This document shows, piece after piece, positions 1,950 through 51,107 of a DNA stretch of 64,000 nt. This stretch comes from Cenarchaeum sp. (lineage in GTDB: Archaea > Thermoproteota > Nitrososphaeria > Nitrososphaerales > Nitrosopumilaceae). The notes beneath the pieces are model-generated. The model had not been told where the DNA came from. It was given only the letters and a program-made list of their open reading frames with translations, and did not search any database. Each line of letters opens with the position of its first letter. Within the stretch, counting starts at the first letter, position 1. The translations under genes and the position numbers were made by a program. The stretch is from positions 288,001-352,000 of the forward strand of contig CBDESU010000001.1 in NCBI GenBank assembly GCA_965242695.1, written 5' to 3'.

Positions 1950-3791
1950 TCAGCCGCGCCGCCCTGCCCGCCGCCGTAGGCGGCCGCCCCGGCCCCGCCT
2001 GTCTCCGCCCTCACCCTCCGCCCCGCCGCCCCTCTCGGGCGCCCTGATCTCGGGCGCCCCTCCGCCCGGCATCGCGGGGTCGGCCATGGGAGGGCGGCCG
2101 GCCGCAAGCGCGAACGGCGGGTCGGACGCGGCCATGCGCGCGGGGCCGAGCGGGGTCGCCGACTCGCCGGCCGCGGACATCCTTCCTCCCAGTCCCTGCG
2201 CGTGCGGCGTGGGCGCGCCGGCCGGCCCGACCAGTCCGCTCCACTGCGCGCCGGCCCCGGCCGCGCCGGGCCAGAGCGGCTCGGACGCGCCGGCGCCGAC
2301 CGCCCCCGCATACCTTGCAAAGGGCGATCCCATCGCGCCGGCGCCGGGAACGGTCCCGAGCCCGACCGAAATGTCCTGCAGCATCCCGACGCTCGCCCCC
2401 GACCGCAGCCCGCCGCCGAGCCCCGCAAGCCCCCCGCGCAGCCCGCCGCCGTCCCTGTACCCGGCGACGGCCCCCGTTCCCGCGCCGTGCGCGACGCTGA
2501 CGGCCCCCGTAACCCCCGACAGCACCGCCGTCCCGACCATCCCCGACGCCTGCCCGACGAGCCCCGCCAGCACGGGCGCCATCAGGAGGGGTATTCCGGT
2601 GGCCAGGAGCAGCAGCGACATGGCCGCGATCCAGAACGTCATCAGGCTGTCGCCCGCATGCCTCCCGTCCTCCATGTCGAGGAGTATGCCGGCGCCCGTG
2701 AACAGGACGGCGGCGGTCATTACGGGGATGAGCAGCAGCGGCACTATCGACTCGAGCATCCTCGAGAATATCGAGCCGACGCGCGGCGCAAACGACAGCA
2801 CGCACAGCAGCGGCAGCAGCGATATGACGAGCGCCAGGAACAGCTCGCGGACCGTCATCGTGACGAGCCCGACGAGCGTGAGAGAAAAGAGCATCATCAC
2901 CTTTGTCATCCCCATGAACACGCCGCTGCCGACGCGCTCGGCGAGGTCCTCTAGCATGCCGAACGCCTGCTCTGCCCCCGTCTGCGCCTCCTCCAGCCCG
3001 TCGGTCGCGCCCCAGAACGCCTTGTGGTACACGTACGAGACCCTCAGGCGCGGATCGCACGGCGACATCGCCTCGGCCTCGGAGACGGCGTCGCGAAACC
3101 TCAGGTTCTGCCCCGCCACGAGGGCCGTCAGGTCGTCGGCCGCCGGCGAGACCTCGTACGGGACGCGGGTGTCGCGCGCCGACGGGTCGCGCCTGCCGGC
3201 GGGCCCCGCCGGCCCCTCCTCGTACACGCCGGGCAGGCACCCGTCGAGCCCCTCGGAGCCGCGTACAGCGCGCGGCTCGAGCGTGTAGAGCGGGTTGAGC
3301 AGCAGTATTCCGAGCCTCTCGGACTCGACGGCGGCCGCGTCCCACGCGGGGACGAACACGGAGACCAGGACGACCATGCCGAGGAACCGCATGAACAGCG
3401 GCCTTGCCGAGCCGCGCGGCCACACGCCTGCCGCCTCGGCCCAGGCCGCAAACAGGACGTAGCCGAGGACGGCGACCGAGCCTGCCAGGAACACGTTGCG
3501 CCGCATGAGCTCGAACGTGACGAGGTTCGACGTCGGCTCGGTGTAGCCGGCTAGCATGTCGTACCCCGCTATGCCGCGCTCGTCCTCGAAGAACTTTGGG
3601 TTGTGGAAGCCGGCCGAGATGAGCTCTTCGCGCAGGACGGACGTCTCGTTGGCGGCAAAGACGAGGAACGACATGAGCAGCAGGAACGTCGTCGTCAGTA
3701 CGAGCACGCCGCTCACGCCAAAGTCGGCGCGCGAGCTGCCCGACAGGAACCGGAGGGCGGCTCCGCCCCCGCGGCGCCGGCTGGGGGGCAT
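1950..3791 (-). CDS. VirB6/TrbL-like polytopic membrane protein of a conjugation-type system
   Basis: About 7-8 hydrophobic segments (e.g. VRELFLALVISLLPLLCVLSFAP) followed by a Gly/Ala-rich tail (SGVTGAVSVAHGAGTGAVAG) typical of VirB6/TrbL. ATG at 3791 lies just after the stop of the upstream gene (3796). Confidence 0.65.
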   Translation of the reverse strand: MPPSRRRGGGAALRFLSGSSRADFGVSGVLVLTTTFLLLMSFLVFAANETSVLREELISAGFHNPKFFEDERGIAGYDMLAGYTEPTSNLVTFELMRRNVFLAGSVAVLGYVLFAAWAEAAGVWPRGSARPLFMRFLGMVVLVSVFVPAWDAAAVESERLGILLLNPLYTLEPRAVRGSEGLDGCLPGVYEEGPAGPAGRRDPSARDTRVPYEVSPAADDLTALVAGQNLRFRDAVSEAEAMSPCDPRLRVSYVYHKAFWGATDGLEEAQTGAEQAFGMLEDLAERVGSGVFMGMTKVMMLFSLTLVGLVTMTVRELFLALVISLLPLLCVLSFAPRVGSIFSRMLESIVPLLLIPVMTAAVLFTGAGILLDMEDGRHAGDSLMTFWIAAMSLLLLATGIPLLMAPVLAGLVGQASGMVGTAVLSGVTGAVSVAHGAGTGAVAGYRDGGGLRGGLAGLGGGLRSGASVGMLQDISVGLGTVPGAGAMGSPFARYAGAVGAGASEPLWPGAAGAGAQWSGLVGPAGAPTPHAQGLGGRMSAAGESATPLGPARMAASDPPFALAAGRPPMADPAMPGGGAPEIRAPERGGGAEGEGGDRRGRGGRLRRRAGRRG

Positions 3792-3795
3792 CCCG

Positions 3796-4569
3796 TCAGC
3801 CCCCCTCTCCCGCCGCATCGACGAACTCGATCGTGCGCGATGCGATCGTCCCTCCGCCGGCCGCGTCGAGCACCTCGATGCGGCGCAGGCCGGCCCGGGG
3901 GATCAGCGTTACGGTGATCTGCCCCTCGCCGTTGGCCGTGTCGCGGACGAGCTCGGCGCCGTCGACGCGTACGACGACGCCGGCGTGCCCGTGGGCCGCG
4001 CCGATGTCGAGCGTCAGGTCCGCCGGCGCGCAGGCGCCCCCCTCGCCGTCCACGATCGCGACCCGCTCGGCGGCGGCCTCCTCCCCTGCCGACCCTCCGG
4101 CGCGCCGCCCCGCCGCCGCCTGCGCGCCGGATCCCAGGACGTATTCGTCGCCGGGGCCTGCCACCGTATGCGCCCCGCCGCCGTCCCCGCCCGCGCGCGG
4201 GCGGCCGAGCAGGGCGGCAAGGGGGCCGCGCCCCCTCCCGGCCCCCTTTCCGCGCCGGGCGCCCCTTTTGCCCGCGGGGGCGGCAATGCAGGCAAGGGCG
4301 GCATAGTACAGGTACATCTCGGGCATCTCGCCGCGCCACCGGAAGAACGCGGCGGCGGCAAGGATGAGGCCGGCGGCTGCGAGCCACGGCGGCGCCGATC
4401 CCGTAAACGAGAGCATTGCGCATATGACGAACGCGCCGACGTAGCCGAGCTCGCGCACGCTCAGGCTCACGAGGGGGGCGTGGAAGAGCGGCGTGAGAAG
4501 GTCGGACTCGTGTCGGACGGCGATGAACTCTTGGTCGTACGTCACGGCGGCGGCCGCGCCCGTCCGCAT
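3796..4569 (-). CDS. PrgI/VirB3-like membrane protein with C-terminal beta-rich domain
   Basis: N-terminal LSVRELGY followed by two TM helices and RWRGEMPEMYLYY, a PrgI-like layout. Directly upstream of the VirB6-like gene. Confidence 0.45.
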   Translation of the reverse strand: MRTGAAAAVTYDQEFIAVRHESDLLTPLFHAPLVSLSVRELGYVGAFVICAMLSFTGSAPPWLAAAGLILAAAAFFRWRGEMPEMYLYYAALACIAAPAGKRGARRGKGAGRGRGPLAALLGRPRAGGDGGGAHTVAGPGDEYVLGSGAQAAAGRRAGGSAGEEAAAERVAIVDGEGGACAPADLTLDIGAAHGHAGVVVRVDGAELVRDTANGEGQITVTLIPRAGLRRIEVLDAAGGGTIASRTIEFVDAAGEGG

Positions 4570-4655
4570 TAAAGGGGGGCATGGGATGCTCGGGCAGGCG
4601 AAGCGTCAAAATGCTGTACGTTATTAGTGACCGCCGCGCCGCCCGCCCGGTTCTG

Positions 4656-6200: not shown

Positions 6201-6629
6201 CTACCTCACGATGACGGTGAACAGGTTGCGCACCAGCTCGCCGGCCGTAGTGCGGGCGTTGAAGTCGGCGACGACCTCGTCGCCGGGGTACACCTTTGCA
6301 GCGCCCGTGTCGTTGAGGCTGCCGCCGAAGGTGATGGTCCCGTACGGGGCGGCCGGCACACTGCTCGTCAGGTTGCCTATCGCATGGCCGTCGTGCATGA
6401 GGGCGACGGACGCGCCGGCCTCCAGCGAGCTGCTGCCCTGGTTCGTCATGACGAGGTTGGCGACGGCGACCTGCCCGGCCCCGACGTAGAGTATCTGCAT
6501 CGTCTTGGGCGTCATGCTGGTCGTGCTCATGGCTCCCGTGAGGGCGTCGCTTCCAAAGACGGCGACGGCGCCGAGCGCGCCGACCGTTATGACGATCGAC
6601 ATGACGATGGCTATCGGCTTTGAATCCAT
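6201..6629 (-). CDS. Archaeal type IV pilin-like protein
   Basis: MDSKPIAIVMSIVITVGALGAVAVFG hydrophobic N-helix plus a beta-rich body (NLVMTNQGSSSL). TTTTAT box about 25 bp upstream and a T-rich terminator after the stop. Confidence 0.65.
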   Translation of the reverse strand: MDSKPIAIVMSIVITVGALGAVAVFGSDALTGAMSTTSMTPKTMQILYVGAGQVAVANLVMTNQGSSSLEAGASVALMHDGHAIGNLTSSVPAAPYGTITFGGSLNDTGAAKVYPGDEVVADFNARTTAGELVRNLFTVIVR

Positions 6630-6666
6630 GCAGCGCGGGCGCCCCTTTGAATAAAAGGGCGGGGGG

Positions 6667-7098
6667 CTACGGCGCGCCCGCGGGAGGCGCGGCCACGCGC
6701 AGCGCTTGGCCGGAGCGCGTGGAGACGGCAAACTCGCCGCCCGCCGGCGCATCGCACACGAGCGTGCGGGGGACGGAGACGGCCAGGCCCGCAATGCCCG
6801 CCCCGCCCAGGCCGGCCGCCTCGCACCGCACGGGCCGCCCGCCCGCATCCCACGCGCCGGCCAGGACGGCCGGGGAGGGCGACCCGGGGGCCGCCGCAAC
6901 CGTCGCATACGTGCGGTTCCCGTCGTGCTGCACGTCGATTGCGGCCAGGCGGCCGGCGGCAAGGCCGGCGCTGCGCGCATCGGCGAGCGAGCGGGCCGCA
7001 TCGGATGCGCTCGCGGCCCCGTCGGCGACGGCCGCCGCGACGGCCGCCGCGGCGGCGAATCCTGCGAGCAGGACCACGGCCTCATACGAGAGCATCAT
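6667..7098 (-). CDS. Pilin-like protein
   Basis: MMLSYEAVVLLAGFAAAAAV N-terminal helix with Glu near position 5, followed by a small beta domain. TTTTTAG upstream. Confidence 0.5.
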   Translation of the reverse strand: MMLSYEAVVLLAGFAAAAAVAAAVADGAASASDAARSLADARSAGLAAGRLAAIDVQHDGNRTYATVAAAPGSPSPAVLAGAWDAGGRPVRCEAAGLGGAGIAGLAVSVPRTLVCDAPAGGEFAVSTRSGQALRVAAPPAGAP

Positions 7099-7204
7099 TG
7101 CGCCCGCCCCGCATGCGGGCAGCTAAAAAGCGGGGGCCCCGCGTTCCCGCGCCCGCCCCGGGCCGCCGTGCCGGCCTTAAATCCAAACCGGCGCCGCCGC
7201 CGCA

Positions 7205-7957
7205 ATGCTAGACAAGATGGGAAAGACAGACCTGGGAGAGGCCGCAAAGTCGCTCGGCATCGTCTTTGTGATCGGCATCATCGTGGCCGTCACGGGCGGC
7301 ATGCTCACGGCCCTTGTGGCCGAGGACGACACCCCGTACGGCGGGGACGGCGGGGACGGGGACGGGGACGGCACCGCAAGGCAGTTCATCGGCATAATGC
7401 ACAGGGAGGGCAAGAGCTTTGTCGGCCTTGTCGCGTTCTGGGCCCCGATAGCCGGCCTGCTGATGATACTTTCGGCGGGGATCATACTGCTGCTTGGCGG
7501 CGGCAGGGGCGGCGCCCTCTGGGGCGCCGTCGCGCCCCGCCTGGCCATTGCCGTCGCCGCCTCGGCCGCTGCCGCCTGCCTGCTCGCCGCGCGCGGGACG
7601 GTCGGCGCCGAGACGCTAGCCGTCGCGTTCGCCGCCGCACTGGCTGCCGACGTGGCCACTACGGCGCTCTCGCCGCGGTGCATGGCGCGCGAGACGAACC
7701 TGCCGCTTGCGCTAGGCGCAAGACTGGCGGGGCCGCGGCTCGGCTGGGCCGTGTACGGGGCGGCGTACGCTGCGGCGTGCGGCGCGGCAGCGCACCTGTT
7801 CGCGCTCGACGCGTACGCGCTGCTCGCAGTCCTGGCGCCGCTTCATGCGGCGGCCGCATTCGCCAACGCGTACGGCGGCAGGATTCGGCTCGCCCGCACG
7901 CGCGCGCGGGCCGGGCCTGCGCCGGCAGCTGCGCCGCAGAGGCCGCATCGCGCATAG
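7205..7957 (+). CDS. Multi-pass membrane protein (N-terminal two-TM hairpin, possibly VirB2-like)
   Basis: Several hydrophobic helices. TTAAAT box at about 7177-7182 and a T-rich terminator at about 7983-7998. Confidence 0.55.
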   Translation: MLDKMGKTDLGEAAKSLGIVFVIGIIVAVTGGMLTALVAEDDTPYGGDGGDGDGDGTARQFIGIMHREGKSFVGLVAFWAPIAGLLMILSAGIILLLGGGRGGALWGAVAPRLAIAVAASAAAACLLAARGTVGAETLAVAFAAALAADVATTALSPRCMARETNLPLALGARLAGPRLGWAVYGAAYAAACGAAAHLFALDAYALLAVLAPLHAAAAFANAYGGRIRLARTRARAGPAPAAAPQRPHRA

Positions 7958-7981
7958 GGCGCCACGGCACCGACATCCATC

Positions 7982-7998
7982 ATTTTTCTTTTTTGTTT
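7982..7998 (+). terminator. T-rich archaeal terminator
   Basis: TTTTTCTTTTTTGTTT just downstream of the stop at 7957, in an otherwise very GC-rich context. Confidence 0.5.
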
Positions 7999-8095
7999 CG
8001 CGCGATCGCCCCTGCCGCGGCCCGCGCGGCGGCCGGTTCCGGCCGGCGCCGCCGAAGCCGCCCTTGGACTGCCCGCGCGGGATGCCTGCCGCCGC

Positions 8096-8938
8096 TCAGC
8101 GTTTTCTGCCGGGCGCGCGGCCCGCGCGCCGGCTCCCCTGCCGCTGCCGCTTCGGCGCAGGGGACGACGATCCCGGCGCGCGCCGCCCGCTCCTGCGCGC
8201 CGCCTTGTTGGCCTTGACCCATACCATGCTCCTCCCCCTTGGCCGCACGGCCGCCTCGGGCGGCGCCTCGGCCCCGGCCGCCTGGGCCTTTAGCCGTATG
8301 TGGTAGCGCTTTGATGCGGCAAGGTACGATGCCTTGCCGGCCGCCGTCGCGTAGCGCCGCCGAGCGTACTCGCGGTTGCGGGTGCGGTTGAGCTCGACCG
8401 CGGCCGGATTGCTGCGGTACGACTCGTACGCCCCCTTCTTGGAGCACGCGTTGCTGCAGTAGCGCGTGCGCATGGACTCTTCCGGTATGCGCTTGCCGCA
8501 CTGGTCGCAGTACAGCGGCTTCTTCGGCTCGGTGCGCCGCCTGCGCTCGGCCTTGCTGGCCTCCTCAAACTGGACCCTGACCTCGGGGTGCAGCCGCGAC
8601 TCTACGGCCGTGCGCTTGCGGCACCTATCGCTGCACAGGCGCGTCTGGGGCCTGCGGTCCTTGGGGAGGGGGCCCCCGCAGTACCTGCACGTGGTCGGCC
8701 GCCCTGGCTTGGCCGCCCCGCGTGCAGGCTTGGCCGCCCCGCGTGCAGGCTTGGCCGCCCCGCGTGCAGGCTTGGCCGCCCCGCGTGCAGGCTTGGCCGC
8801 CCCGCGCCCCTGCTGCCGCGCGGCGCCGCCACGGCGCCTGCCGCCGCCGAGAATGCTGCCGACCGCCGCACCAATGCGATCGAGTCGCCGCGCCGCGCCG
8901 CCGCGGCGCCTGCTGCCGCCCCTTGCCGACGCTACCAT
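8096..8938 (-). CDS. Basic protein with two CxxC...CSxxC (TRASH/treble-clef-like) Zn-binding motifs
   Basis: CRYCGGPL...LCSDRC and CDQCGKRI...YCSNAC. TTTATA box about 25 bp upstream of ATG 8938. Confidence 0.65.
   Translation of the reverse strand: MVASARGGSRRRGGAARRLDRIGAAVGSILGGGRRRGGAARQQGRGAAKPARGAAKPARGAAKPARGAAKPARGAAKPGRPTTCRYCGGPLPKDRRPQTRLCSDRCRKRTAVESRLHPEVRVQFEEASKAERRRRTEPKKPLYCDQCGKRIPEESMRTRYCSNACSKKGAYESYRSNPAAVELNRTRNREYARRRYATAAGKASYLAASKRYHIRLKAQAAGAEAPPEAAVRPRGRSMVWVKANKAARRSGRRAPGSSSPAPKRQRQGSRRAGRAPGRKR
8706..8805. repeat. 21-bp tandem repeat (GCTTGGCCGCCCCGCGTGCAG, about 4.7 copies) encoding RGAAKPA
   Basis: Read directly from the sequence. Confidence 0.9.
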
Positions 8939-9311
8939 GCGGGGCGGGGCCGGGCGGCATGCTATAAACCGCACGATCCTGGAATTGAGATGCACGGCAG
9001 GGCGCCGCCCCCGCCCTTGCCATGCGGCGCGGGGGGGGGGGAGGGGGAGAGGATGCCACGCCTGCCCTGTCCTGTAGGATATTGGACAGCGTGCGGGCGG
9101 CGGCCCGCTCTGGCCCGTGATGAGGGCGCACAGACCCCTGCCACGCGCCCCTGTCCCGGACCGCCCGCAGACTGGCCGGCATTCCTAGCGCCTGCCAAGT
9201 GGCGGCGGACGGAGGCGCAATGCGGAAGTGCGATCGGCGACCGGCAATGGCCGGCTATACTGCCGCGATCGCGGCCCGATCGTGCGCGGCGGCCGTGCCG
9301 GCCGGCGGCAT

Positions 9312-10037: not shown

Positions 10038-10121
10038 CCTACCCGCGACCGTGCCGGGACGGCGCGTATGAAAGGCATGCCCCTGCCTCCCGCCTTTTAT
10101 GCAGAGCCGCGCCGCGCGCGC

Positions 10122-12011: not shown

Positions 12012-12016
12012 CCGGA

Positions 12017-13189
12017 ATGGAGCACGCGCATGCGGCCGCCATAATGATGGCCGTGGCCGCCGCTGCCGCGGCGGCGGCCGCATCGCACGCCTACGAGGAG
12101 GCCGGGCATGCGGCCGCCGGCGGGGCCGCATCCGCGCCGCCCGTCCACGCGCACGTGGATGTGAGGGGCGAGCGGCCGGCGGTCGCGACCCTGGCCGTGT
12201 CCAACGCGGGCCGCGCCGCCGTGGTCTCGGTCAACGCGACCGTATGCGGGGCGTCCGGGCTGCTCGGCAGGGCCGCCGGCGACGCCAACTGGTCGCTGCG
12301 CGCGGGATCGTCGGCGCATGTCGCGTGGGCCGCCCCGTGCCATGCCGGCCCCGCCCTGGCCCGGGTAGAGTACGAGACGGCCGACGGATCGTCCGCGGTT
12401 ACACTCCACAGGGCGTGCGCGGGCAGCGCATGCGGGCGCGGGATCGGCGGCATCGGCGGCGGCGCCGGGGGGTGGCGGGGGGACGGGGCCGCCCTGCCGC
12501 CGCCGCTGCCGACGCTGCTGGTGCCGATGCCGCCGCCGGTGCAGCCCAGTCCCCTGCCGGCCCCCGAGATTGCATCGTGCTCGGTGTCCGGCCTGGCCGC
12601 CACGGTCTGCTTCAACGGCAGCGCCGCGGCCGCATCGTACGAGGTCTCGCGCCTGCTCTCTCCGGGGCCTTCGGAATACGCCCTTGTCGGCAGCGCCGCG
12701 ACGGCGCCGGCCTGCCATTCGGACAGGGCGCCGCCCGGGTCGGCGTCGGCAACGTACGCGGTCTCGGCGCTGCCGGCTGCACCTGGGGGAGGCAGCGCAT
12801 CGCAGCCGTCGCGCACGGCGCGCGCCGACTTTGCCGCGCAGCAGTGCTACGTGGACACGCCGGGCGGCGAGAGGGTCGGCTCGCCGCGCGGACCGCCGGC
12901 GCCGGCGCCGGCAGCGCAGTCGGACTATCGCATCGCAATGTACACTGGGTTTGCATCCACGCCGCGTACGGTGCAGGCCGGCTTTGGCCCCGACATCCAC
13001 GTGGTCGAAAGGCTGTCCGACGGGTCGTGGTCGCGCCTCGGGTACGCGCCGTCGCACCCGCGCGATTCGCTGTCCGAGCACCTGCCGGCCGAGCTGGTCG
13101 CGCGCAGCGCGTCCGGGGATGCGGACGTGAGGTACGTCCGCGCCGACCTGCTGCGCCACCTGGACGCCTTCTGGGGGTCGCGGCAGTGA
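12017..13189 (+). CDS. Exported pilin-like protein with an FN3-like C-terminal domain
   Basis: Hydrophobic N-terminus, LAVSNAG beta motif, YEVSR...HSD...TYAVSA pattern. Starts 5 bp after virB4. Confidence 0.55.
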   Translation: MEHAHAAAIMMAVAAAAAAAAASHAYEEAGHAAAGGAASAPPVHAHVDVRGERPAVATLAVSNAGRAAVVSVNATVCGASGLLGRAAGDANWSLRAGSSAHVAWAAPCHAGPALARVEYETADGSSAVTLHRACAGSACGRGIGGIGGGAGGWRGDGAALPPPLPTLLVPMPPPVQPSPLPAPEIASCSVSGLAATVCFNGSAAAASYEVSRLLSPGPSEYALVGSAATAPACHSDRAPPGSASATYAVSALPAAPGGGSASQPSRTARADFAAQQCYVDTPGGERVGSPRGPPAPAPAAQSDYRIAMYTGFASTPRTVQAGFGPDIHVVERLSDGSWSRLGYAPSHPRDSLSEHLPAELVARSASGDADVRYVRADLLRHLDAFWGSRQ

Positions 13190-17036: not shown

Positions 17037-17053
17037 GGGGAAGGGAGAGGAAG

Positions 17054-36147: not shown

Positions 36148-36301
36148 TGCCAGCCTGCTTTTAAAGCCCGGAAAACCGGCTGCCAGCCTGCTTTTAAAGC
36201 CCGGAAAACCGGCTGCCAGCCTGCTTTTAAAGCCCGGAAAACCGGCTGCCAGCCTGCTTTTAAAGCCCGGAAAACCGGCTGCCAGCCTGCTTTTAAAGCC
36301 C
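36148..36301. repeat. 33-bp perfect tandem repeat TGCCAGCCTGCTTTTAAAGCCCGGAAAACCGGC, about 4.7 copies
   Basis: Copies at 36148, 36181, 36214, 36247 and a partial copy at 36280. No spacers. Confidence 0.95.
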
Positions 36302-36410
36302 CGAGAACAGGTTGTCCTGACAGGCCGGGGGTGGCGGCCTGTTGTAGCCGACCCGCTGCAGATACCTCATCCAAGCAGAGCCGGCTGGGCAGGCCCAGGG
36401 CCGCGCCCTG

Positions 36411-43692: not shown

Positions 43693-46275
43693 TCACGCCC
43701 TTCCCTTTTCCCCTTTGGCCCCGCCGACCTCGGCCCCGTCAGCCGGCCACGGGCGGCAGAGCGACTCGATGACCTGCGCCGGCGTGAGAAGGCGCAGCGC
43801 CTGCCCACGGCCCGGAGGCCTGCCGGCGCGGCCCGCGGCCGCCTCTAGCGCAGGCGGGTCGGCTATCGATATACGGTACGACCCGTGGCCGACTCCTGCG
43901 CCGGCGAGCGTCTCGCCCACAACGGACGCGTCCCTCTCGCCAAACGCGACAAACCATACGGACATGCCGGCAGCGGCGCCCTTTTCGTAGTTGGCGATCA
44001 CCTGGTCGCGGTGCTTTGACGGCGATGCCTCTACCTCGACGGCGAGCACGTCGTCGGACCACGCGTCGGGATCGGCGGGCCGGCCGCCGGGCATTGCCAT
44101 TTTTGGCGGCTCGTACGGGGGCGGAGGGGGCTCGCGGCCGCCGCCCGCCCTGGCGGATTCGGCCCCGCCCTCCCCGGCACCCTCCGCCGCGGCCGGCTCG
44201 GCCGCAGCGGCCGCCGCGGCCGCGCGCAGCGGCGCCGCCTTTCGCCTCCCGGCCAGCCGGGCCGCGGCCTCTGTTGCGCGGCGCACGGCGGCCCTGCGGG
44301 CAGCGGCCTCGCGCGCAGTCGATGCGCCTGCCGCCGGCCGAAACGAGTGCACTACAATGTCCGGCCGCGTGCGCGCCGAGTCGCCGAGGTCCGGGACGGC
44401 ATAGTGGTGGTGCGCCCTCATCGCCGCGCATATCGACGAGATGGCGGCCCTATGCAGCCCGCCGCCGGCCCCGCGGCCAGAGAATGCGGACGAGTACAGC
44501 GACCTTACCGCCAGCGCAGTCTCGCTGTACATCTGTACCGTGCTGTCGAGCCTAGAGCCTACCGCGTATTCCGTCCGCGCGGATGCGTACCGCTCGTGGC
44601 CGGCAAGCGAGTCGGCAAGGGCCGATGCGGCGGCCCGCTCGTCCGTGCGGGCAAACGCAGAGCAGGCGGCCGCCGCAAGCGACGGGCCGGCGACCTCGCG
44701 CCCGCCTGCGGCATGCAGGACGCTGAGCAGAAAGTACTGGAGGGGCGGGAGGCGCGGCGAGGCCGCCGCGGCCGCGCCGGCGGCCGCCCTGCCGGCCCCG
44801 CGGGCGGCGCCGAACGAGCCGGCGGCCCGCAGCGGCGCCGGCATTCCGTGCGCCTCTAGGCTGAGGCGCGCCGTCTCCCTCCACCTTGATGCCACCTCCA
44901 GGTGGCGCGTCATCCCTACTCCGGACACCTGCCGCGAGCCGTGCGAGTAGGCGGCGAACCTGTGGCGGCCGAGCCTGCCGAGCTCGGCCTCGCCGAGCGG
45001 CATGCTCCTTGCAAGGACGGAGGCGGTCCGGCGGTCGCACCGGAACATCGCGATGCACCGGAACAGGTCGTCGAGCTCGCCGGCGAGGCTGCCCCCGAGC
45101 ACCCCGACGGACTGCGTCGCCACGGTCGCCTTCATGCCGTACTTGCGCACGCCGTTGAGCAGGTCGCGCACCACGTCGGGCGCGAACATGTGCACCTCGT
45201 CGATGTACACGTTGAACGGCGTGCGGCGGGCCTCGCCGAGGTCGAACCGTATGCGGTTCTCTAGCCCGAACATGCCGATGATCAGGGTCCCCATGAACTC
45301 TACGATGTCTGGCGTCGATGCCGACCCGAGGTCGACGACGACGAACCTGCCGCGCTCGATGCACTCGCGTATGCTGACCGACGACCTGGCAGACGAGAAC
45401 ATGGCCGCCACGGGCGGCGTGCTTATGATCTTGTCGAACTTGTTGTACACGGCGCCGGCCGCCTCGGAGGAGAACCTCGGGTACACGGACGCCCAAAAGT
45501 CGCGCACGGACGGGTCGGAGCACGAGCGGAGCGCCTCGGCGCGCCGCTCCTCGTCGTACAGGACGGAGACGAGGTCCAGGAAGCGGAACTCGCCTGGCGT
45601 CGACATGACGAGGCCCATCAGGTTGCGCAGTATGGCCTCTAGGCGGTGGCCCCAGCCGCTCGCAAAGTACTGCCTGAGGCTCGATACGGCGCCGGCCGCG
45701 CGTATGTACCGCTCGTGCTCGGTGCGGCTCTCGAGGGGGTTTATGCAGACCGTACGGCCGAACTGGTACATCGAGGCGAGCGATATGTACACGACGCGCC
45801 CGCGCATCGACGGCGGCACGAGCGAGAGGACCTCGCGCGCAAAGTCGCGGTGCGGGTCGACGAGCAAAAACCCCGTCCCGCGCGCAATGTCCTGCATTAT
45901 GAGGAGGCGCATGATCGACGTCTTGCCGGACCCGACCTCGCCGAACACGGCGATGTTCTGGCGGTCGCTCTCGGGTATGGCGAACAGCTCGGGGCGCCCC
46001 TCCGTTCCGCCGCCGGGAGCCTCTACGTAGCCGAGCGCCGTCGTCTCGCGGCTTGTGCGCGATGCGTCGAATGCGGGCGCGGCATCGGGGGGTGCGGGCC
46101 GCGGCCCGTCGTTTTCCGCGGCGGGCCGTCCCCGGGGCGGGGCGGCCGGGCCGCGGCCGGGGCCGCTCCCGGCCGGGCGGCGCCGAATGGCGGGCAGAAG
46201 GGCCCAGCCCGCGCCGCAGGCGGCGCCCGCGGCCGCCGCCGCGGCAAGAATACCGGCGGCATCGAGCGGCAGCAT
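43693..46275 (-). CDS. VirD4/TraG-like coupling ATPase with C-terminal wHTH-like and PD-(D/E)xK-like extension
   Basis: N-terminal TM, Walker A GEVGSGKTS, LVDPHRD, INPLE, FVVVDL, Walker B VYIDEVH, RKYG..ATQ. C-terminal GGLHRAAI...RPDIVV...AVEVEAS. Confidence 0.8.
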   Translation of the reverse strand: MLPLDAAGILAAAAAAGAACGAGWALLPAIRRRPAGSGPGRGPAAPPRGRPAAENDGPRPAPPDAAPAFDASRTSRETTALGYVEAPGGGTEGRPELFAIPESDRQNIAVFGEVGSGKTSIMRLLIMQDIARGTGFLLVDPHRDFAREVLSLVPPSMRGRVVYISLASMYQFGRTVCINPLESRTEHERYIRAAGAVSSLRQYFASGWGHRLEAILRNLMGLVMSTPGEFRFLDLVSVLYDEERRAEALRSCSDPSVRDFWASVYPRFSSEAAGAVYNKFDKIISTPPVAAMFSSARSSVSIRECIERGRFVVVDLGSASTPDIVEFMGTLIIGMFGLENRIRFDLGEARRTPFNVYIDEVHMFAPDVVRDLLNGVRKYGMKATVATQSVGVLGGSLAGELDDLFRCIAMFRCDRRTASVLARSMPLGEAELGRLGRHRFAAYSHGSRQVSGVGMTRHLEVASRWRETARLSLEAHGMPAPLRAAGSFGAARGAGRAAAGAAAAASPRLPPLQYFLLSVLHAAGGREVAGPSLAAAACSAFARTDERAAASALADSLAGHERYASARTEYAVGSRLDSTVQMYSETALAVRSLYSSAFSGRGAGGGLHRAAISSICAAMRAHHHYAVPDLGDSARTRPDIVVHSFRPAAGASTAREAAARRAAVRRATEAAARLAGRRKAAPLRAAAAAAAAEPAAAEGAGEGGAESARAGGGREPPPPPYEPPKMAMPGGRPADPDAWSDDVLAVEVEASPSKHRDQVIANYEKGAAAGMSVWFVAFGERDASVVGETLAGAGVGHGSYRISIADPPALEAAAGRAGRPPGRGQALRLLTPAQVIESLCRPWPADGAEVGGAKGEKGRA

Positions 46276-46284: not shown

Positions 46285-46773
46285 CTACGGGAGCGCCTCG
46301 ATCGCGAGGAGCTGCGCGTCGAACCTGGCAAGGCGGCGGTATGCATCGTCCGTAATGCAGATCTGCTCGCGGCCGCGCTTGGCGGCCAGGCCGCGCGCGA
46401 CAAGGCATGCCGCGGCCGAGCGCATGCGGGACGGCGACCTGCCGGCAAGGAGCGGCAGGAGGGCCGAGTACGAGACGGGCACGTCGATCGGCAGGGGCCG
46501 GGCATCGGGGGCGCTCGCGGCCGCGGCGGCGGCCCGCTCGATCCGCCTGCGGAATGTATACAGGAACGAGAGGATGCGCATCTCGAGGACGGGCACGCCG
46601 AGCATGGCGGCCATGTACGCGGCCTCGCCGCGCCCGCTCAGGCGGCACTCCTCGTGCAGCATGCCGCGCCGGCGCAGCGCGGCCTTTTCGCGCGCGGACA
46701 GGTCCCCGCCGGCGCGGAGCCTTGCAGATGCGGCGTACCACGCCGAGCGGCGCAGCGTCCTGCGCGCCGTCAC
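46285..46773 (-). CDS. Hypothetical winged-helix-like protein
   Basis: GTG overlaps the upstream TGA. EMRILSFLY...SRMRSAAACLVARGLA..ICIT is a wHTH-like pattern. Confidence 0.5.
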   Translation of the reverse strand: MTARRTLRRSAWYAASARLRAGGDLSAREKAALRRRGMLHEECRLSGRGEAAYMAAMLGVPVLEMRILSFLYTFRRRIERAAAAAASAPDARPLPIDVPVSYSALLPLLAGRSPSRMRSAAACLVARGLAAKRGREQICITDDAYRRLARFDAQLLAIEALP

Positions 46774-47681
46774 TGCCCCCACTCCGCCGTACGCTCGAAC
46801 GGGGCGGCAGGATCGGCCGCGTCCGTGCGCGCGTTCGTAAACGTGCGGCCCGCGCCGGGCTGCGCCTGGAGCCCAAACATCGACGGCGGCAGGGCCAGGA
46901 CGGACGCCATCTCGGCCGGCGAGAGGACGGGGGCGGTCCCGCGCCCGACAAGGCGCGGCAGGCGGGCCGGCGGCTCGGCAAGCCCGGTGCTGCGGATGAG
47001 GGGGCCGCCCCTGTTCCCGCCCCCGGTTCGCAGGCGGCGCCGGCGGCACGGCACGAGCGAGTTTGGGCCCGATCCCGCATGCGCAAAGTTGATCGACGAT
47101 GCGAGCCGGCCCATGCCTCCGGGGCACGAGGCGAATATGCGGCACAAAAAGAACGGGCCGCCTGCCAGCTTTGCCGCGGCCAGGCGGTCCAGGACGGCTG
47201 CGGCGCCGGCCCTCTCGGCCCCGCGCCCGCCGGGGCCGCCGCTGCGCCGCCGCAGCGAGGCGGCCCTGCGGGCTAGCGCGCCCCGCCTGCCGGCCACTAC
47301 AGAGTCGGGCACGCGCCTGCCGGCCAGTCCGGCGACAAAGTCCGGCAGCTCGGCAGAGTGCGCGTACAGGAGGCACGGCTCGGGCGCGGTGCACAGCGGC
47401 ACGGCGCAGCTCTCGCGGAGGCGAAACTCGACCACCTCCGGACCGGCTCCGCCCGCAGACGGGGCCGCAGGCGGGCCGCCGTCCGCCGGCGAGACGTCCA
47501 CGTCGGGCAGCGACCGGATGTGGTGCGCCTCGTGCGGGGCGACGCCGAGGTGCAGCGAGACCGACCTGCCCGCCTTTGCCAGCACGATGCCGAACCGCGA
47601 GACGGCCGACGCGAGGGCCACCGTGCGGGCCGCATCCGCATCCTCGAACGCCGCCGCCGGGCGCGCCTCGAACCACGCCAT
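46770..47681 (-). CDS. Hypothetical protein resembling the region preceding the ATPase domain of long coupling proteins
   Basis: KLAGGPFFLCRIF...NSLVP...LSPAEMASVLALP pattern. Operonic with the coupling protein. Confidence 0.5.
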   Translation of the reverse strand: MAWFEARPAAAFEDADAARTVALASAVSRFGIVLAKAGRSVSLHLGVAPHEAHHIRSLPDVDVSPADGGPPAAPSAGGAGPEVVEFRLRESCAVPLCTAPEPCLLYAHSAELPDFVAGLAGRRVPDSVVAGRRGALARRAASLRRRSGGPGGRGAERAGAAAVLDRLAAAKLAGGPFFLCRIFASCPGGMGRLASSINFAHAGSGPNSLVPCRRRRLRTGGGNRGGPLIRSTGLAEPPARLPRLVGRGTAPVLSPAEMASVLALPPSMFGLQAQPGAGRTFTNARTDAADPAAPFERTAEWGQ

Positions 47682-47843
47682 CACGGCCCGACCACCGCCA
47701 GCAGGGCCGCCGAGGCGGCGCACGAGTGGGCCAGGACTGGGACGGACGGCGAGATGCGCCCGGCGTACCGGCTGCCGGGGCCCAAGAGGGGGCCGCCCCG
47801 CGGGCCCCGCCACGCGGCGGGGATGCCGTCGCTACCGCCGTCG

Positions 47844-48503
47844 CTACCGCCGCCAATTCCGCTCGCGCCGCCCGTCCGCCGCCGCGGAACCGCCCCCCGC
47901 CGGTGCGGGCCGCGGCGCATACGCCCACCTGTCGCGGGCCGAGCGGCGCTTGGACGATACGAACGCGGCCGCCGCGCCGAGCCAGCCGCCTCCCCCTCCT
48001 GCCGCCGCGCCGCCCCCTGCACTGCCGCCTCCCGGCCCGCCGCGGCCTCGGCGGCCGATGCGGCCGCAAGAGTTCGACACGGCGCAGACTGCGACCGCGT
48101 GCACGCACGACGAGGCTACTGCGGCAAGGATTGACAGGACGGCAAGGTGCAGGCCCGCCGGGATCAGGACGGCAAACAGCGAGGAGAGTATGGCCCAGTC
48201 GGCCGTCCCGTACAGGCCGGCGAGCCGCAGCAGGCCGAGCATTGCGGCCGCCACGCCGGCCAGCATCGCCGGCGGCGCGATCTGGCCCATGTCGCCGCCG
48301 GCGCCGTACGCGGCGGCAAGGTGGGCTGCCGCCATCGCCGCCATTGCCAGCGTCAGGGCGTTGAGGGCCGAGCGCCAGCGCACCTCCTGGTACGAGGCGG
48401 CGCCGAGGGCGGCAAAGAACGCGCCGATCAGGACGGGATGGGCCGCCGCCCCTGCCGCCACGCCGGCCGCCGCAGCGGCGGCCGCCGCATCAGGGACGGT
48501 CAT
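47844..48503 (-). CDS. Prepilin peptidase (A24/PibD-FlaK)-like membrane protein
   Basis: AASYQEVRWRSALN (first catalytic Asp position is Glu) and GLYGTADW (GxxD), with multiple TMs. The 3' end is uncertain. Confidence 0.55.
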   Translation of the reverse strand: MTVPDAAAAAAAAGVAAGAAAHPVLIGAFFAALGAASYQEVRWRSALNALTLAMAAMAAAHLAAAYGAGGDMGQIAPPAMLAGVAAAMLGLLRLAGLYGTADWAILSSLFAVLIPAGLHLAVLSILAAVASSCVHAVAVCAVSNSCGRIGRRGRGGPGGGSAGGGAAAGGGGGWLGAAAAFVSSKRRSARDRWAYAPRPAPAGGGSAAADGRRERNWRR

Positions 48504-48868
48504 GCCTGTATCCTCCTCTTGCGGCCGCGCCCCGCCGGGCGCCGGCCGCGGTCGGCGGCGTACAGGACGACAAACGGGCCGTCCATTCCGCGCCGGCAGA
48601 GGTCGTCGGCCTTTTTGCGCAGCGCCTCGGCGCCGCCGGCCCTGACCACGCGCAGCGACGAGTCGTCGTCGAGGCGAAGGTAGTCGCGCTGGGCGCTTGG
48701 CAGCGCGTGTATGACCTCGGCCGGCTGGCGGCCTGCGCCGCCCCCGCCCCTGCCGCCGGGGCCCGGCTCTGGCGAGACGACGTAGCATCCGTCCCTGTCC
48801 TCGACGACCTCGCGCACGCCGCCCCTCAGGACGCAGTACCGCTTTTCGCATCCCGGGCAGCGGAACAT
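48500..48868 (-). CDS. Small Zn-ribbon-like hypothetical protein
   Basis: MFRCPGCEKRYC. Overlaps or abuts neighbours in the operon. Confidence 0.55.
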   Translation of the reverse strand: MFRCPGCEKRYCVLRGGVREVVEDRDGCYVVSPEPGPGGRGGGGAGRQPAEVIHALPSAQRDYLRLDDDSSLRVVRAGGAEALRKKADDLCRRGMDGPFVVLYAADRGRRPAGRGRKRRIQA

Positions 48869-48870: not shown

Positions 48871-49812
48871 TCAGGCGGGCCGCGCGGGACTCGGTCGCGG
48901 CGTCGGCGGCGGGGAGGCGCCGGCCGGGGAGGCGCCGGCCGGGGAGGCGGCGGCGCCGCCATCCTGCGCGCCGCCCCTGCCCTTCCCGCCGCCGCCGCTC
49001 CCTGCGCCGGCCGCGTCGGGCCGAAGGGTCGGCGGCAGGCGGGCGGCCCCCGCTTCTGTCGGCGCGCCGCCCTGCCCGGCATCCATCCCCGCGCTCTGGA
49101 GCAGGAGGCGGATCACGTCGGCACTGGGCCACGCAAAATGGCGCTGCCTGACGGCCTCGCACAGGCGCGCCGTCATGTCGGCAACGGCCACCTGCGACTC
49201 CTCGTCGAGGCGCGATACCGATATCAGGAACGGCAGGGGCGGGGCCTGCCGGACGCCGCACGCGTACACGCGGCGGACCATGTCCGAGAGGGCTGCGCGC
49301 GGGCGCTCGCCAAAGCCGAGCGAGACGGCCCGCTCCAGGTAGGGGCCAAGGTGCGCCCCGCCTACTCCGCCCTTCCCGTTGCCGCCCCGCAGGCGCCCGA
49401 CCGCCTCGGCGGCCGCGAACGGATCGATCGTGCCGTGCAGCGACGAGCGCGTCAGGTGCTCGCGCAGCGCAGCCTCGCCCCCGCCGCCTCCCACGCCCCT
49501 GCCGCCGCCTTCGACGATCCGTATCCCGACCCGCTCGGCCCCTGACTCCCGCGCCGCGTAGAGCACCTCGAGGTTGTCTACGGCCACAAGGCCGCGGCGG
49601 CCCCTGCCGCCGGCCGCGGCGGCGCGATCCTCCACGACGCACACAAAGTGCGAGCCGTTCGCGCCGCCCCTGCCGCCGCGCCGCAGCCTGCCCGCGACGA
49701 ACCCGACCGCATCGTCGTGGGGCACGGCCACCGTAATGCGGGGGTCGGACACGTCCGAGACGGGGGCCGTGCCGCCGCCGGCCGCGCCGGCCGCGCCGGA
49801 ATGCGGCGTCAT
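48871..49812 (-). CDS. Divergent ParB/Srx-like protein
   Basis: LVAVDNLEVLYAARESGAERVGIRIV...EHLTRSSLHGTIDPFAAAEAVGRL mirrors the ParB N-domain, with the GxxR motif degenerate. Confidence 0.5.
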   Translation of the reverse strand: MTPHSGAAGAAGGGTAPVSDVSDPRITVAVPHDDAVGFVAGRLRRGGRGGANGSHFVCVVEDRAAAAGGRGRRGLVAVDNLEVLYAARESGAERVGIRIVEGGGRGVGGGGGEAALREHLTRSSLHGTIDPFAAAEAVGRLRGGNGKGGVGGAHLGPYLERAVSLGFGERPRAALSDMVRRVYACGVRQAPPLPFLISVSRLDEESQVAVADMTARLCEAVRQRHFAWPSADVIRLLLQSAGMDAGQGGAPTEAGAARLPPTLRPDAAGAGSGGGGKGRGGAQDGGAAASPAGASPAGASPPPTPRPSPARPA

Positions 49813-50654
49813 GCGGCCACCGCCGCCGCCGCCGGCGCCGCGGCCCCTGCCCCGGCTCCGATCAGCTCAAACCGCCTTGCAATCTCGACGGCAATAGCGA
49901 GGGGCGCGCCCGAGTCGCACAGGCGCAGGGCCGACCTGCGGAGCGGCTCGGATGCGATCCTCCTGAGGCGGGACGCGGCCTCGGCCTCGGCGCCGGGCGG
50001 AGGCCGGTGCGCGCTGGCGCCGCGGCCCTCCCCGTCCCCCGCGCCGCCGTCCTCCCCGCCGGCGCGCACACGGCCGTCCCCGAGGCACTCGCCTATGCCG
50101 CCGGCCTCCACGAGGACGGCCTCTACGGCAAAGACTGCCCTGCGCGGGCGAAACGTCCGCCTGACCGCAAACGCGGCGCGGACGGCGCCGGACATGTCGG
50201 CCTCGGACGCGCCGATGCCGTACTCGGCGCACGTGCGGTATATGGCAAAGTATGCCACGCAGGGGCGGCGCAGGGCCGCGCCGGCGGCGCGCCTGCCGCG
50301 CACCATACGGGCGATGTGGGCGGCCCTGCGGCAGCACGCCGGCGGCAGCGACAGCAGGCCGCACGCGCGCTGGAGCATCGCATCGAACGGGTCGCGCGCG
50401 CCCTCTAGCATGCGCCGGTGCCGCCTCGAGCGCAGCACCGACGGGGGCGATATGTCGCGCGTGCCGACGGCGTCCTCGTTGTCGACGCGCACCCTGGCGG
50501 CGAGCAGCCCGCTCTCCGCCCGCCCGCCCTGCGCGGCGCCGTCGTCGGGCAGGCGCTCCTCGTGGACCGTCCCGCACGACGAGCACACCCGCTCGTGGCC
50601 GTCGACTAGCATGCGGGGGCGCAGGCAGCACGGCGGCCTGCCGGACGGGGTCAT
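49809..50654 (-). CDS. Divergent transcription factor B (TFB/TFIIB)-like protein
   Basis: N-terminal Zn ribbon CC...ERVCSSCGTVHEE, then a cyclin-like repeat LQRACGLLSLP...AAHI...CVAYFAIYRTC. Confidence 0.65.
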   Translation of the reverse strand: MTPSGRPPCCLRPRMLVDGHERVCSSCGTVHEERLPDDGAAQGGRAESGLLAARVRVDNEDAVGTRDISPPSVLRSRRHRRMLEGARDPFDAMLQRACGLLSLPPACCRRAAHIARMVRGRRAAGAALRRPCVAYFAIYRTCAEYGIGASEADMSGAVRAAFAVRRTFRPRRAVFAVEAVLVEAGGIGECLGDGRVRAGGEDGGAGDGEGRGASAHRPPPGAEAEAASRLRRIASEPLRRSALRLCDSGAPLAIAVEIARRFELIGAGAGAAAPAAAAVAA

Positions 50655-50920
50655 GCGCCGGCTGCGCCTCCACCGGGGCTGCCGGCCGCGGCGCCGCCGG
50701 CCCGGCCGCGGCCATACCTGGGCCCGATGCGCAGGAGCGCCCCGCAGCACGGGCAGGCCCTCGACGAGGTCTCGAAGAACATGTCGCACCTGCGGCAGCG
50801 CCTGAGGCCGCGCCCGTACGGGTCGCTGTTGAGCGGCTCCCTCGTGCCGGACAGCTCGCAGAGGGCCTTGCAGACGTTCAAGGGCGCCGCGCCCCCTGTG
50901 CCGCGCCCGTCACGACGCAT
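50651..50920 (-). CDS. Small Cys-rich Zn-finger protein of a type common in Nitrososphaerota
   Basis: CKALC...YGRGLRRCRRCDMFF...CPCCGALLRIGPR. Confidence 0.7.
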   Translation of the reverse strand: MRRDGRGTGGAAPLNVCKALCELSGTREPLNSDPYGRGLRRCRRCDMFFETSSRACPCCGALLRIGPRYGRGRAGGAAAGSPGGGAAGA

Positions 50921-51107
50921 CCCTCCCGTACACGTAGACGTACCGCTGCCCCGTGCTGCGCATGGACAGGTAGATCGAGTTGACGGCATCGTAGACGTCC
51001 TCGTTGCCGCAGGCGCACCGGCCGCAGCCCGTTCCCGCGCAGCCGTCGGGGGCGCCGAGGCTGTCGAGGATCGCCTTTATCTGGCGCTGGGTAAACTTTT
51101 GAGCCAC
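50910..51107 (-). CDS. Small hypothetical protein, first gene of the 51.1-43.7 kb operon
   Basis: 65-aa ORF overlapping the next gene, with plausible composition. Confidence 0.5.
   Translation of the reverse strand: MAQKFTQRQIKAILDSLGAPDGCAGTGCGRCACGNEDVYDAVNSIYLSMRSTGQRYVYVYGRDAS

Follow-up and report, generated by a model that had tools for sequence, protein, structure and literature searches.

Ten integrative and conjugative elements (ICEs) of Thaumarchaeota were described by Krupovic et al. (2019; PMC6563490), and by that description they encode VirB4, VirD4, VirB6, VirB3, TadC, FlaI and PilT, together with a prepilin peptidase, pilins and TFIIB upstream of ParB, with no relaxase and with non-syntenic modules. 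The median size reported for thaumarchaeal ICEs is 64 kb. Abby et al. (2018; PMC5797428) described two such elements; one of them, NCAV2-E2, lacks an integrase and is there termed immobilised. Archaeal conjugative plasmids are likewise reported to be without a relaxase (PMC9905601, PMC6563490), and the Ced and Ted systems are described as conjugation machines domesticated for DNA import (Beltran et al., PMC9905601). Here we report on a locus at positions 1950-51107 of a 64-kb stretch of DNA from Cenarchaeum sp., the whole of which is called the window below; in this locus genes related to type IV secretion systems (T4SS) stand among genes of the type IV pilus kind. We regard it as fairly probable that an integrated element, of the same type as the thaumarchaeal ICEs, has its conjugation module at this locus, and that the element is old, resident in the chromosome, still under selection and vertically inherited. 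The combination of T4SS, type IV pilus and a TFIIB-ParB pair without relaxase is a gene set already described in silico and not a new class. New are the absence of a detectable integrase or attachment sites, orthologs with core-like synonymous divergence (dS), a permutation of gene blocks, a divergent A24-like protein and an extra domain on the candidate coupling protein. Gene identities (to varying degrees), linkage, patchy distribution and purifying selection are established by the data given below.

Genes in the window were called by third-position GC, which gave 43 genes, because spurious frames swamp the raw list of open reading frames (ORFs), comprising 316 ORFs of at least 80 aa. The GC content is 60-77% along the window. 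Coordinates are window positions unless given as C1 (genome contig), and the host genome is designated G000. Profile matches originate from Pfam, NCBIfam, PHROG and PDB sequence searches, and topology from prediction of transmembrane (TM) helices. The host genome amounts to 3.89 Mb in two contigs with 67-68% GC, carries archaeal SSU and LSU rRNAs, and contains an archaeal AmoA (2.1e-118), for which none of 14 control genomes gave a match. The closest named relatives of its VirB4 are in metagenome-assembled genomes (MAGs) of Nitrosotenuis, Nitrosotalea, Nitrosopumilaceae and Nitrososphaera. An earlier note on this DNA had taken the host for a putative thaumarchaeote, which proved right despite the high GC. 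Public runs of five studies contain the whole or part of the stretch, several of them labelled sponge metagenome; the host is an AmoA-bearing ammonia-oxidising archaeon occurring in sponge metagenomes. For sponge-associated Thaumarchaeota, GC of up to 66-67% and an enrichment of restriction-modification (R-M) genes were already reported (PMC7848895, PMC6697440), and in the available text of these two comparative papers VirB4, "type IV" and "pili" are absent.

The genes of the locus form five blocks within 1950-51107, and all the ORFs named in the earlier note are present at or near the positions that it gave. Block 1 contains the VirB3- and VirB6-like genes, block 2 the ORFs at 6201-8995, block 3 the plus-strand run at 10068-19141, and block 4 the genes from the TPR pair to the 1832-aa Big_5 protein. 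The genes with the firmest predicted identities, and the ORFs that stand between two of them, are as follows:

10068-12011, plus strand: VirB4-family conjugative ATPase, from Pfam, NCBIfam and conserved motifs
12017-17036, plus strand: three ORFs (390, 342 and 942 aa) between virB4 and tadC, with one N-terminal hydrophobic helix each
17054-19141, plus strand: TadC/UpsF-type pilus platform membrane protein, from NCBIfam UpsF and multiple TM helices
22353-24215, minus strand: FlaI/TadA-type secretion ATPase, from Pfam T2SSE and NCBIfam FlaI

The VirB4 protein matched the Pfam families P-loop_TraG with 36 bits (cut-off 25.8) and AAA_10 with 30.4 bits (cut-off 27.5). Eleven NCBIfam families of the VirB4/TraC/TrbE type matched at 6e-25 to 4.5e-5, conju_CD1110 being the best (6.2e-25) and TraC reaching 2e-24, all under their equivalog cut-offs; the match to NCBIfam CedB was weak (1.1e-6, 27.5 bits against a cut-off of 700). 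The Walker A motif G337-S341 is invariant in seven relatives, as are G337, G339, K340, S341, E527 and W529 individually. The protein is thereby firmly predicted to be a true VirB4 relative, and it is the single VirB4 of the host genome. The TadC/UpsF-type protein matched NCBIfam UpsF at 4.6e-22 over residues 201-659, under the cut-off, and is 80% identical to its counterpart in the congener G004. The FlaI-type ATPase gave 84 bits with T2SSE (cut-off 24.9), 2.7e-54 with NCBIfam FlaI and 1.2e-33 with the TadA type. Both predicted identities are considered firm, and the three calls of the earlier note, VirB4, TadA/FlaI-type ATPase and TadC, are thus borne out by profile matches. Homology of the FlaI-type ATPase to G004 begins at residue 120, and its true start is therefore probably near 23990. 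The run from virB4 to tadC (10068-19141) consists of five plus-strand ORFs with gaps of 5, -4, -7 and 26 nt, an operon headed by virB4 as had been suggested. Its 390-, 342- and 942-aa ORFs are 61-66% identical to those of G004, and gave no profile match in Pfam, NCBIfam or PHROG.

The comparison with related genomes involves a second group of features, the last five of which lie in block 5, the minus-strand run from 51107/50750 down to 43693:

1950-3818, minus strand: candidate VirB6/TrbL-like polytopic membrane protein, 622 aa, 7 predicted TM helices, from TM prediction, Pfam and homologs
3796-4569, minus strand: VirB3-like candidate, 257 aa, N-terminal two-helix hairpin (TM helices 41-76)
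26175-34099 (ORF to 34480), minus strand: two giant proteins with an N-terminal signal/anchor and a C-terminal TM helix, kept with the cluster in G004 and G002
43693-46275, minus strand: VirD4-like coupling-protein candidate with an N-terminal TM helix, an FtsK/HerA-type NTPase and a C-terminal domain
47844-48503, minus strand: divergent A24 (prepilin peptidase)-like membrane protein, 219 aa, from hhalign and an Atlas lead
48871-49812, minus strand: ParB_N-like protein candidate, Atlas feature score 0.92
49809-50750, minus strand: putative divergent TFIIB/TFB homolog, from hhalign, Pfam and a PDB profile
50910-51107, minus strand: small conserved ORF (65 aa) heading the TFIIB-VirD4 block, 90% identity and same position in G004

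VirB4 was found in 11 of the 41 related genomes (8 of 37 genera), a patchy distribution. Two congeners, G004 and G002, hold orthologous clusters; within the genus, G003 had no VirB4 match and G001 only one of 26% identity. For most genes the G004 proteins are 54-90% identical, and those of G002 33-72%, where gene order is unchanged between the VirB6-like gene and the giant ORFs. Strong matches to the VirD4-like protein were obtained in six relatives, every one of them VirB4-positive, and in four of these (G001, G004, G017 and, twice, G032, making five loci) VirB4 and the VirD4-like gene are 6-45 kb apart. In G002 the VirD4-like gene (C1:3071419-3073674) is ~840 kb away from the VirB4 cluster. 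In a tblastn comparison with 13 other thaumarchaeal contigs, FlaI homologs were found beside VirB4 on 5, VirB6-like genes on 4 and TadC on 2; misses are to be expected there, with flanks 2-22 kb long. One of the giants (1201 aa) has relatives adjoining VirB4 at 4 of the 13 other loci. The earlier note had left room for the ATPases being generic HerA-like proteins, or the genes being core and unlinked in relatives; this does not apply, with VirB4 genuine, limited to a minority of genomes and linked to a VirD4-like gene in four relatives.

Thirteen element genes were compared between G000 and G004 by the Nei-Gojobori method, giving dS of 0.37-0.63 and dN/dS of 0.15-0.44 with no internal stops, and six flanking core genes gave dS of 0.30-0.55. 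With core-like dS and low dN/dS, the element would therefore date from roughly the time of the species split and be under purifying selection. We consider it hardly credible that the locus is a decaying remnant without current function. Such decay would agree with the lack of a found integrase, with an A24-like protein that is short of one catalytic Asp, and with the state of the other giant, ORF 29777-34480 (1567 aa), where homology to G004 and G002 is limited to residues 179-1239 and the third-position GC signal changes frame near 30750. All 13 tested genes are, however, intact in both genomes, with the low dN/dS given above at dS of ~0.4-0.6. The frame switch and partial homology of ORF 29777-34480 therefore point to a shorter true gene, a frameshift or a species-specific tail.

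The island that contains the locus is ~75 kb long, from C1:~285,250 to at most C1:360,900. On the left, the core genes UbiA, PurK and a VTT-domain gene (76-85% DNA identity to G004) stop at C1:285,248, and the border lies ~2.7 kb before the window start; on the right, conserved core genes resume with pyruvate phosphate dikinase, which begins at C1:360,909, and the border falls between C1:339,100 and C1:360,900. Between the conjugation genes and this core gene there are R-M genes, an AlwI-like gene, an IS630-type transposase and ATPase fragments. Among the 43 genes and 131 six-frame gap ORFs we found no integrase, no A24 family match and no relaxase family of Pfam, NCBIfam or PHROGs; the 40 extra ORFs of the G004 copy also held no integrase. 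The sole match to PF00589 (tyrosine recombinase) in the genome is at C1:2156197, 1.8 Mb away. The window contains no tRNA, the nearest being ~31 kb before the left border and ~46 kb beyond the right limit. No convincing terminal or attachment repeats were seen, the best match between the borders being a 16-nt inverted repeat, and no replication module was recognisable in the element.

Read in reverse complement, the window has the block running from the small ORF through TFIIB and ParB to VirD4, followed by the block from the giants through FlaI, TadC and VirB4 to VirB3 and VirB6. In G004, the block from the giants to VirB6 comes first, R-M genes follow, and the block from the small ORF to VirD4 comes last, with orientations kept. 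The block orders of G000 and G004 are thus circular permutations of each other, which fits a past circular form; duplication and loss could also have produced it. The chromosomal flanks differ among G000, G002 and G004: the right flank in G004 corresponds to C1:692.7-719 kb of G000, and in G004 the counterpart of the G000 left flank adjoins sequence homologous to C1:480-498 kb. There is no clean empty site, because the borders of the element are general synteny breakpoints in heavily rearranged genomes, and for the same reason the context is weak evidence either way. These data bear on whether the locus is a still-mobile ICE, with a recombinase that is unrecognised or acts in trans, which entered G000, G002 and G004 independently. 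The different neighbours in three genomes and the permuted blocks of unchanged orientation, as after passage through a circle, speak for it, and so do the many ORFs without match, an HNH-like ORF and IS630-type DDE transposases in or beside the island, and loose contig ends at the left border (L111:5269-5288). We nevertheless judge a still-mobile ICE to be unlikely. The search for an integrase, a tRNA target or terminal repeats gave nothing, dS is the same as in core genes, and synteny breakpoints are common in these genomes. Junctions and depth were read from Logan contigs, disregarding the joints reported for them, all of which had sides of 20-25 letters (<30). Contigs of three studies (X1, X3 and X7) span the same left junction with ~0 to 4% differences, and contig depth over the island resembles that over the core. 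The one loose-end consensus examined was ruled out as a circle junction of the host copy, its sequence being absent from the host genome.

The vertical-looking inheritance, the purifying selection in three species and the missing integrase would also agree with a former ICE that had become a host system for exchange of chromosomal DNA between symbiont cells, i.e., a linked counterpart of Ups and Ced/Ted with a coupling protein. The single VirB4 of the host genome suits this as well, and so does G002, where the VirD4 block ~840 kb away leaves no single transferable unit; for Ced/Ted, domestication for DNA import is established (PMC9905601). The TFIIB-ParB pair and the R-M cargo are, on the other hand, given as typical of selfish elements (PMC6563490), and the distribution is patchy even in the genus, with no VirB4 match in one congener and only a distant one in another. 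In our estimate domestication is improbable, to about the same degree as continued mobility, and an integrated, chromosomally resident element of the ICE type is preferred to both.

The TFIIB-VirD4 block contains, in addition to the genes already listed, the following features:

46285-47684, minus strand: two conserved ORFs (165 and 304 aa) in the VirD4 operon, from gene calls and G004 conservation
48500-48868, minus strand: small CxxC zinc-ribbon-like ORF, from sequence, 78% identity in G004

The putative TFIIB-like ORF is directly upstream of the ParB_N-like ORF, with a 4-nt overlap. When the TFIIB-like family was aligned with the four host TFBs, hhalign gave a probability of 81% and E=1.2e-5 over 139 columns, spanning the zinc ribbon into the first cyclin repeat. 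Pfam Zn_Ribbon_TF matched at 0.0073, the sole PDB profile match was the TFIIB zinc ribbon 1pft (0.13), and the single sequence gave nothing useful against PDB; together these suggest a remote TFIIB relative. The ParB-like candidate had no Pfam or PDB match, and its name is a lead from the Atlas feature search, where ParB_N clusters made up 14 of 30 matches. The 165- and 304-aa ORFs had no Pfam, NCBIfam or PHROG match.

In the VirD4-like protein the P-loop comes ~75 residues after a membrane helix (3-31), and the stretch preceding it shows no HAS barrel. The top PDB sequence match of the family profile is DotL/IcmO (E=0.0049). Over 17 members of the family, Pfam AAA_10 and DUF87 were each found in 15, TrwB_AAD_bind in 14 (best 9e-5) and TraG-D_C in 11 (best 5.7e-5); scores of the window protein itself for the latter two are under cut-off. 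These matches point weakly to a VirD4 candidate, a membrane-anchored NTPase of the FtsK/HerA superfamily with weak coupling-protein signatures. Its C-terminal domain (residues ~590-860, window 43696-44508) has invariant D629, W739, E747, E749, K754 and H755, recurs in G001, G002, G017 and G019, and is modelled fairly confidently over residues 734-810. The C-terminal 271 aa had no PDB sequence match and no Pfam match at E<=10. To read the invariant D629, E747, E749 and K754 as a PD-(D/E)xK nuclease is only an idea.

The A24-like protein was aligned by hhalign with 12 A24 ORFs of related thaumarchaeal genomes at E=7.9e-4 over 152 columns, and two other membrane families of the element, used as controls against A24, gave E=0.36 and 0.54. 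Its GTAD (D102) falls on the GGAD catalytic motif, and a conserved Glu40 on the first catalytic Asp. The Atlas feature search returned an A24 lead of 0.88 for the same protein. Only three relatives were found among 1.84 billion representatives, and neither these nor the protein itself had a Pfam match. Pfam PF01478 (Peptidase_A24) is present in 21 of the 41 related genomes and in none of the five genomes of the host genus, the host included (E<=0.1 in the host genome). The A24-like call, which the earlier note had also made, therefore stands as a remotely supported one, with the alignment in its favour and the missing Pfam match and the Glu against it.

For the candidate VirB6-like protein, Pfam gave TrbL_3 at E=0.012 (residues 321-453) and TrbL at E=1.1, both under cut-offs, and a profile search against PDB sequences nothing useful; PF19590 or PF04610 occurs on 5 of its 31 database homologs. 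With seven TM helices, these homologs and the sub-threshold match, the proposed VirB6-like identity is remotely supported, short of a Pfam match of its own above cut-off. The VirB3-like gene overlaps the start of the VirB6-like gene. Compared with G004 and G002, the first ~90 aa of the protein are conserved and its C-terminus has diverged. No Pfam, NCBIfam or PHROG profile matched, so that of the PrgI/VirB3-like call the conserved two-helix hairpin is what survives, and the name is tentatively given from this topology only.

Three further ORFs are the following:

6201-6629 and 6667-7098, minus strand: two short ORFs, 142 and 143 aa long, each carrying a single hydrophobic helix at the N-terminus (pilin-like), from topology only
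from 21387, minus strand: 254-aa two-TM protein after the FlaI-type ATPase gene, from TM prediction

The 142- and 143-aa ORFs are kept in G004 and G002 and had no Pfam, NCBIfam, PHROG or PDB match. Five pilin-like candidates in all have one N-terminal hydrophobic helix each, and they are suggested as pilins by membrane topology only. Class III signal peptides have a basic residue, Gly/Ala and then the hydrophobic helix. The island has no second (PilT-type) T2SSE ATPase; there are two T2SSE matches in the whole genome, the other being on contig C2 at 1,617,431. Downstream of the FlaI-type gene there is a 74-bp x 2.1 repeat (96%) at 22161-22312, and a pair of small ORFs is duplicated in tandem at 24137-25206 with 74-85% identity.

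A number of observations weigh against our reading of the locus as a resident, vertically inherited conjugation module. The AlphaFold2 models are of low confidence, with pLDDT of 54.5 for the VirB6-like and 49.8 for the VirD4-like protein. With the former, a Foldseek search of PDB had no match at E<=0.001 (TrwI/VirB6 ranked sixth, E=3.3) and the VIA fold search returned helical hairpins only (Z<=8.1). With the latter, VIA gave VirB4, DndH, HerA, TdpA, Cagbeta, TrwB and DotL at Z 19.4-17.5, and Foldseek the same FtsK/HerA/VirB4/VirD4 superfamily without discrimination. The modelled VirD4-like fold is accordingly inseparable from HerA or VirB4, so that the NTPase fold, the membrane helix and the weak coupling-protein signals of the earlier call hold and its distinction from these two does not. 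The A24-like protein may be inactive, with Glu at the first catalytic Asp. None of the five pilin-like candidates matched a Pfam pilin profile at E<=5, and their N-termini, aligned with homologs, showed no basic-Gly/Ala class III cleavage motif; what is left of the earlier pilin calls is the N-terminal helix. The different contexts in G000, G002 and G004 would also fit past mobility, an early transfer between diverging lineages is compatible with equal dS, and a recombinase could be hidden among the many ORFs without matches. Finally, it is from the genes that we infer what the pilus does, that DNA is the substrate, in which direction it moves and that transfer takes place at all.

Surface proteins, repeats and cargo account for much of the remaining sequence:

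7205-7957, plus strand: small polytopic membrane protein, first ~94 aa conserved (two helices, acidic/glycine loop)
8096-8995, minus strand: zinc-finger/HNH-endonuclease-like ORF (PHROG HNH endonuclease 1.2e-8, Pfam treble clef 0.0019)
19689-21567, minus strand: two tandemly duplicated TPR-repeat genes (Pfam TPR_1 about 1e-27 to 1e-30)
34625-36308, minus strand: AAA_14/DUF4143 ATPase gene with upstream repeats (Pfam 8.5e-24 and 8.9e-18)
37635-43133, minus strand: 1832-aa Ig-like (Big_5) surface protein, C-terminal domain multi-copy in the genome

The locus could also be imagined as a system that does not handle DNA, either an adhesion pilus with a protein-secreting T4SS or a surface-adhesin cluster for life in sponges. 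The two giant anchored proteins kept with the cluster, the large Ig-like and TPR proteins inside it and the occurrence of the organism in sponge metagenomes would suit such a role, and so would the missing relaxase and replication module. We find it very unlikely. The nearest non-archaeal relatives of VirB4 (CD1110 and TraC) are conjugative, a coupling-protein-like NTPase co-occurs with VirB4, and the same gene set is found in free-living soil and freshwater lineages of Thaumarchaeota, as labelled in the records; a relaxase is also missing from archaeal conjugative plasmids as described (PMC9905601, PMC6563490).

The membrane protein ORF at 7205-7957 gave no informative match in Pfam or PDB sequence searches, and a VirB2/CedA1-like role for it is only an idea. 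Kinship of the small membrane proteins with the VirB6-like family or with each other was tried and rejected, hhalign being negative (E 0.07-0.68). The HNH-like ORF contains a perfect 21-bp x 4.8 repeat at 8706-8806 that encodes GAAKPAR units; it has 56% identity in G004 and was not found in G002. The tandem duplication of the TPR genes (19293-21065) has 84-89% identity. Upstream of the AAA_14/DUF4143 gene there are five intergenic 33-bp direct repeats (36148-36308; 98% matches) with TTTTAAA in each, and this array could be of the iteron or centromere-like kind or a set of TBP/TFB sites, serving the ParB-like or the TFIIB-like protein of the element. The 1832-aa Big_5 protein is probably cargo. 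A C-terminal domain of ~330 aa is common to it (37635-38703), to an adjacent fragment (36411-37466) and to an NHL-repeat protein (57203-58164), with 73-84% DNA identity between copies and related copies scattered genome-wide; it may be a domain that surface proteins share for anchoring or sorting. R-M genes flank the locus on both sides, a BbrUII/HgiDII-type enzyme at 1-1785 and Dcm, Vsr and BbrUII-like genes from 51328. The R-M set of the island comprises three BbrUII/HgiDII-like enzymes or fragments, three Dcm, Vsr, an N6/N4 methylase and an AlwI-like enzyme, and the island also holds a Schlafen-type helicase and sacsin-like HATPase proteins.

From this gene content a mode of action can be proposed for the resident element. 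The TFIIB-like factor and the ParB-like protein would head an operon encoding the A24-like homolog and the membrane-anchored VirD4-like NTPase, and a second operon would join VirB4, three membrane-anchored or secreted proteins and the TadC-type platform. The FlaI-type ATPase would drive assembly of a type IV pilus-like filament, which together with the two giant surface proteins may bring about cell contact. A membrane channel would be composed of VirB4 with the VirB6-like and VirB3-like proteins, and the VirD4-like NTPase would feed DNA to it without a canonical relaxase. The proposal of the earlier note, one element with a type IV pilus for mating contact and a minimal T4SS for transfer, thus agrees with the gene content, the linkage and the missing relaxase, while the mating-contact part of it is conjecture. 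It is doubtful, if somewhat less so than domestication, that the locus is a captured element, an integrase-free machine of interleaved type IV pilus and VirB4/VirB6/VirD4 genes, selected since before the split of the three species and now serving DNA exchange between symbiont cells in the sponge. Such a captured element would correspond to Ups plus Ced, but in one locus and with a capacity for export. A Glu/Asp variant of A24 may then be at work in it, and a nuclease domain on the coupling protein or the HNH-like protein may replace the relaxase.

The locus is a well-bounded, complete-looking example in a closed high-GC genome, with orthologs in two sister species that permit a comparison which the published survey had for near-identical strains only. 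Its residency and purifying selection bear on the domestication of archaeal conjugation genes outside Sulfolobales and Thermoproteales. The divergent A24-like protein, the C-terminal domain of the coupling-protein candidate, the HNH-like ORF and the 33-bp array offer targets for experiments. The earlier note knew of no characterised example in Nitrososphaerota; the same architecture has been published as in silico ICEs, and in the literature searched we found no experimental study of thaumarchaeal ICEs.

Four known kinds of system can be compared with the locus. Bacterial Tad/Flp pili have the same TadA/FlaI-type ATPase, TadC-type platform and A24-type peptidase, and the conjugative T4SS of the monoderm type (CD1110/PrgJ class) supplied the best NCBIfam match of VirB4, CD1110. 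These are, however, separate machines, and scores far under the cut-offs indicate homology without membership. The conjugative plasmids of Sulfolobales (pNOB8, pING) are archaeal and have the same VirB4/TrbE and VirD4/TraG without recognisable relaxase (PMC6563490, PMC9905601), but they are plasmids whose core, as described, is without type IV pilus genes or TFIIB-ParB, and the likeness is one of description only. Ced/Ted with Ups (PMC9905601, PMC11868833) are likewise chromosomal and host-inherited as reported, with a VirB4-like ATPase and a VirB6-like channel, and there the type IV pilus (Ups) is required for cell contact. Ced and Ted import DNA without a VirD4-type coupling protein, whereas the locus has a co-inherited VirD4-like NTPase, and Ups and Ced occupy separate loci, whereas the present locus has its pilus genes interspersed with those of the channel. 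In PDB sequence and hhalign comparisons, no pilin of the CedA1/TedC/VirB2 type was recognised at the locus; with CedB far under its cut-off, a VirD4-like protein present and no VirB2-like pilin, the locus is not of the Ced/Ted kind. The nearest counterparts are the thaumarchaeal ICEs, among them NCAV2-E1/E2, NitIsl-E3 and NitEve-E6. By their descriptions these have an integrase (except NCAV2-E2), direct repeats and a tRNA or protein-gene target, none of which was found at the locus, and a PilT-type ATPase, where the island has the FlaI type only and no recognisable replication module. From the elements described in the main text of the papers the locus further differs in its 68% GC host and in having orthologs in three species with core-like dS. 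In common with these ICEs, as published, are VirB4 with a VirD4-like protein, the candidate VirB6- and VirB3-like proteins, TadC and the FlaI-type ATPase, a remote prepilin-peptidase-like gene, pilin candidates, TFIIB upstream of a ParB-like gene and the absence of a relaxase, and likewise the non-syntenic order of modules and a size of tens of kb.

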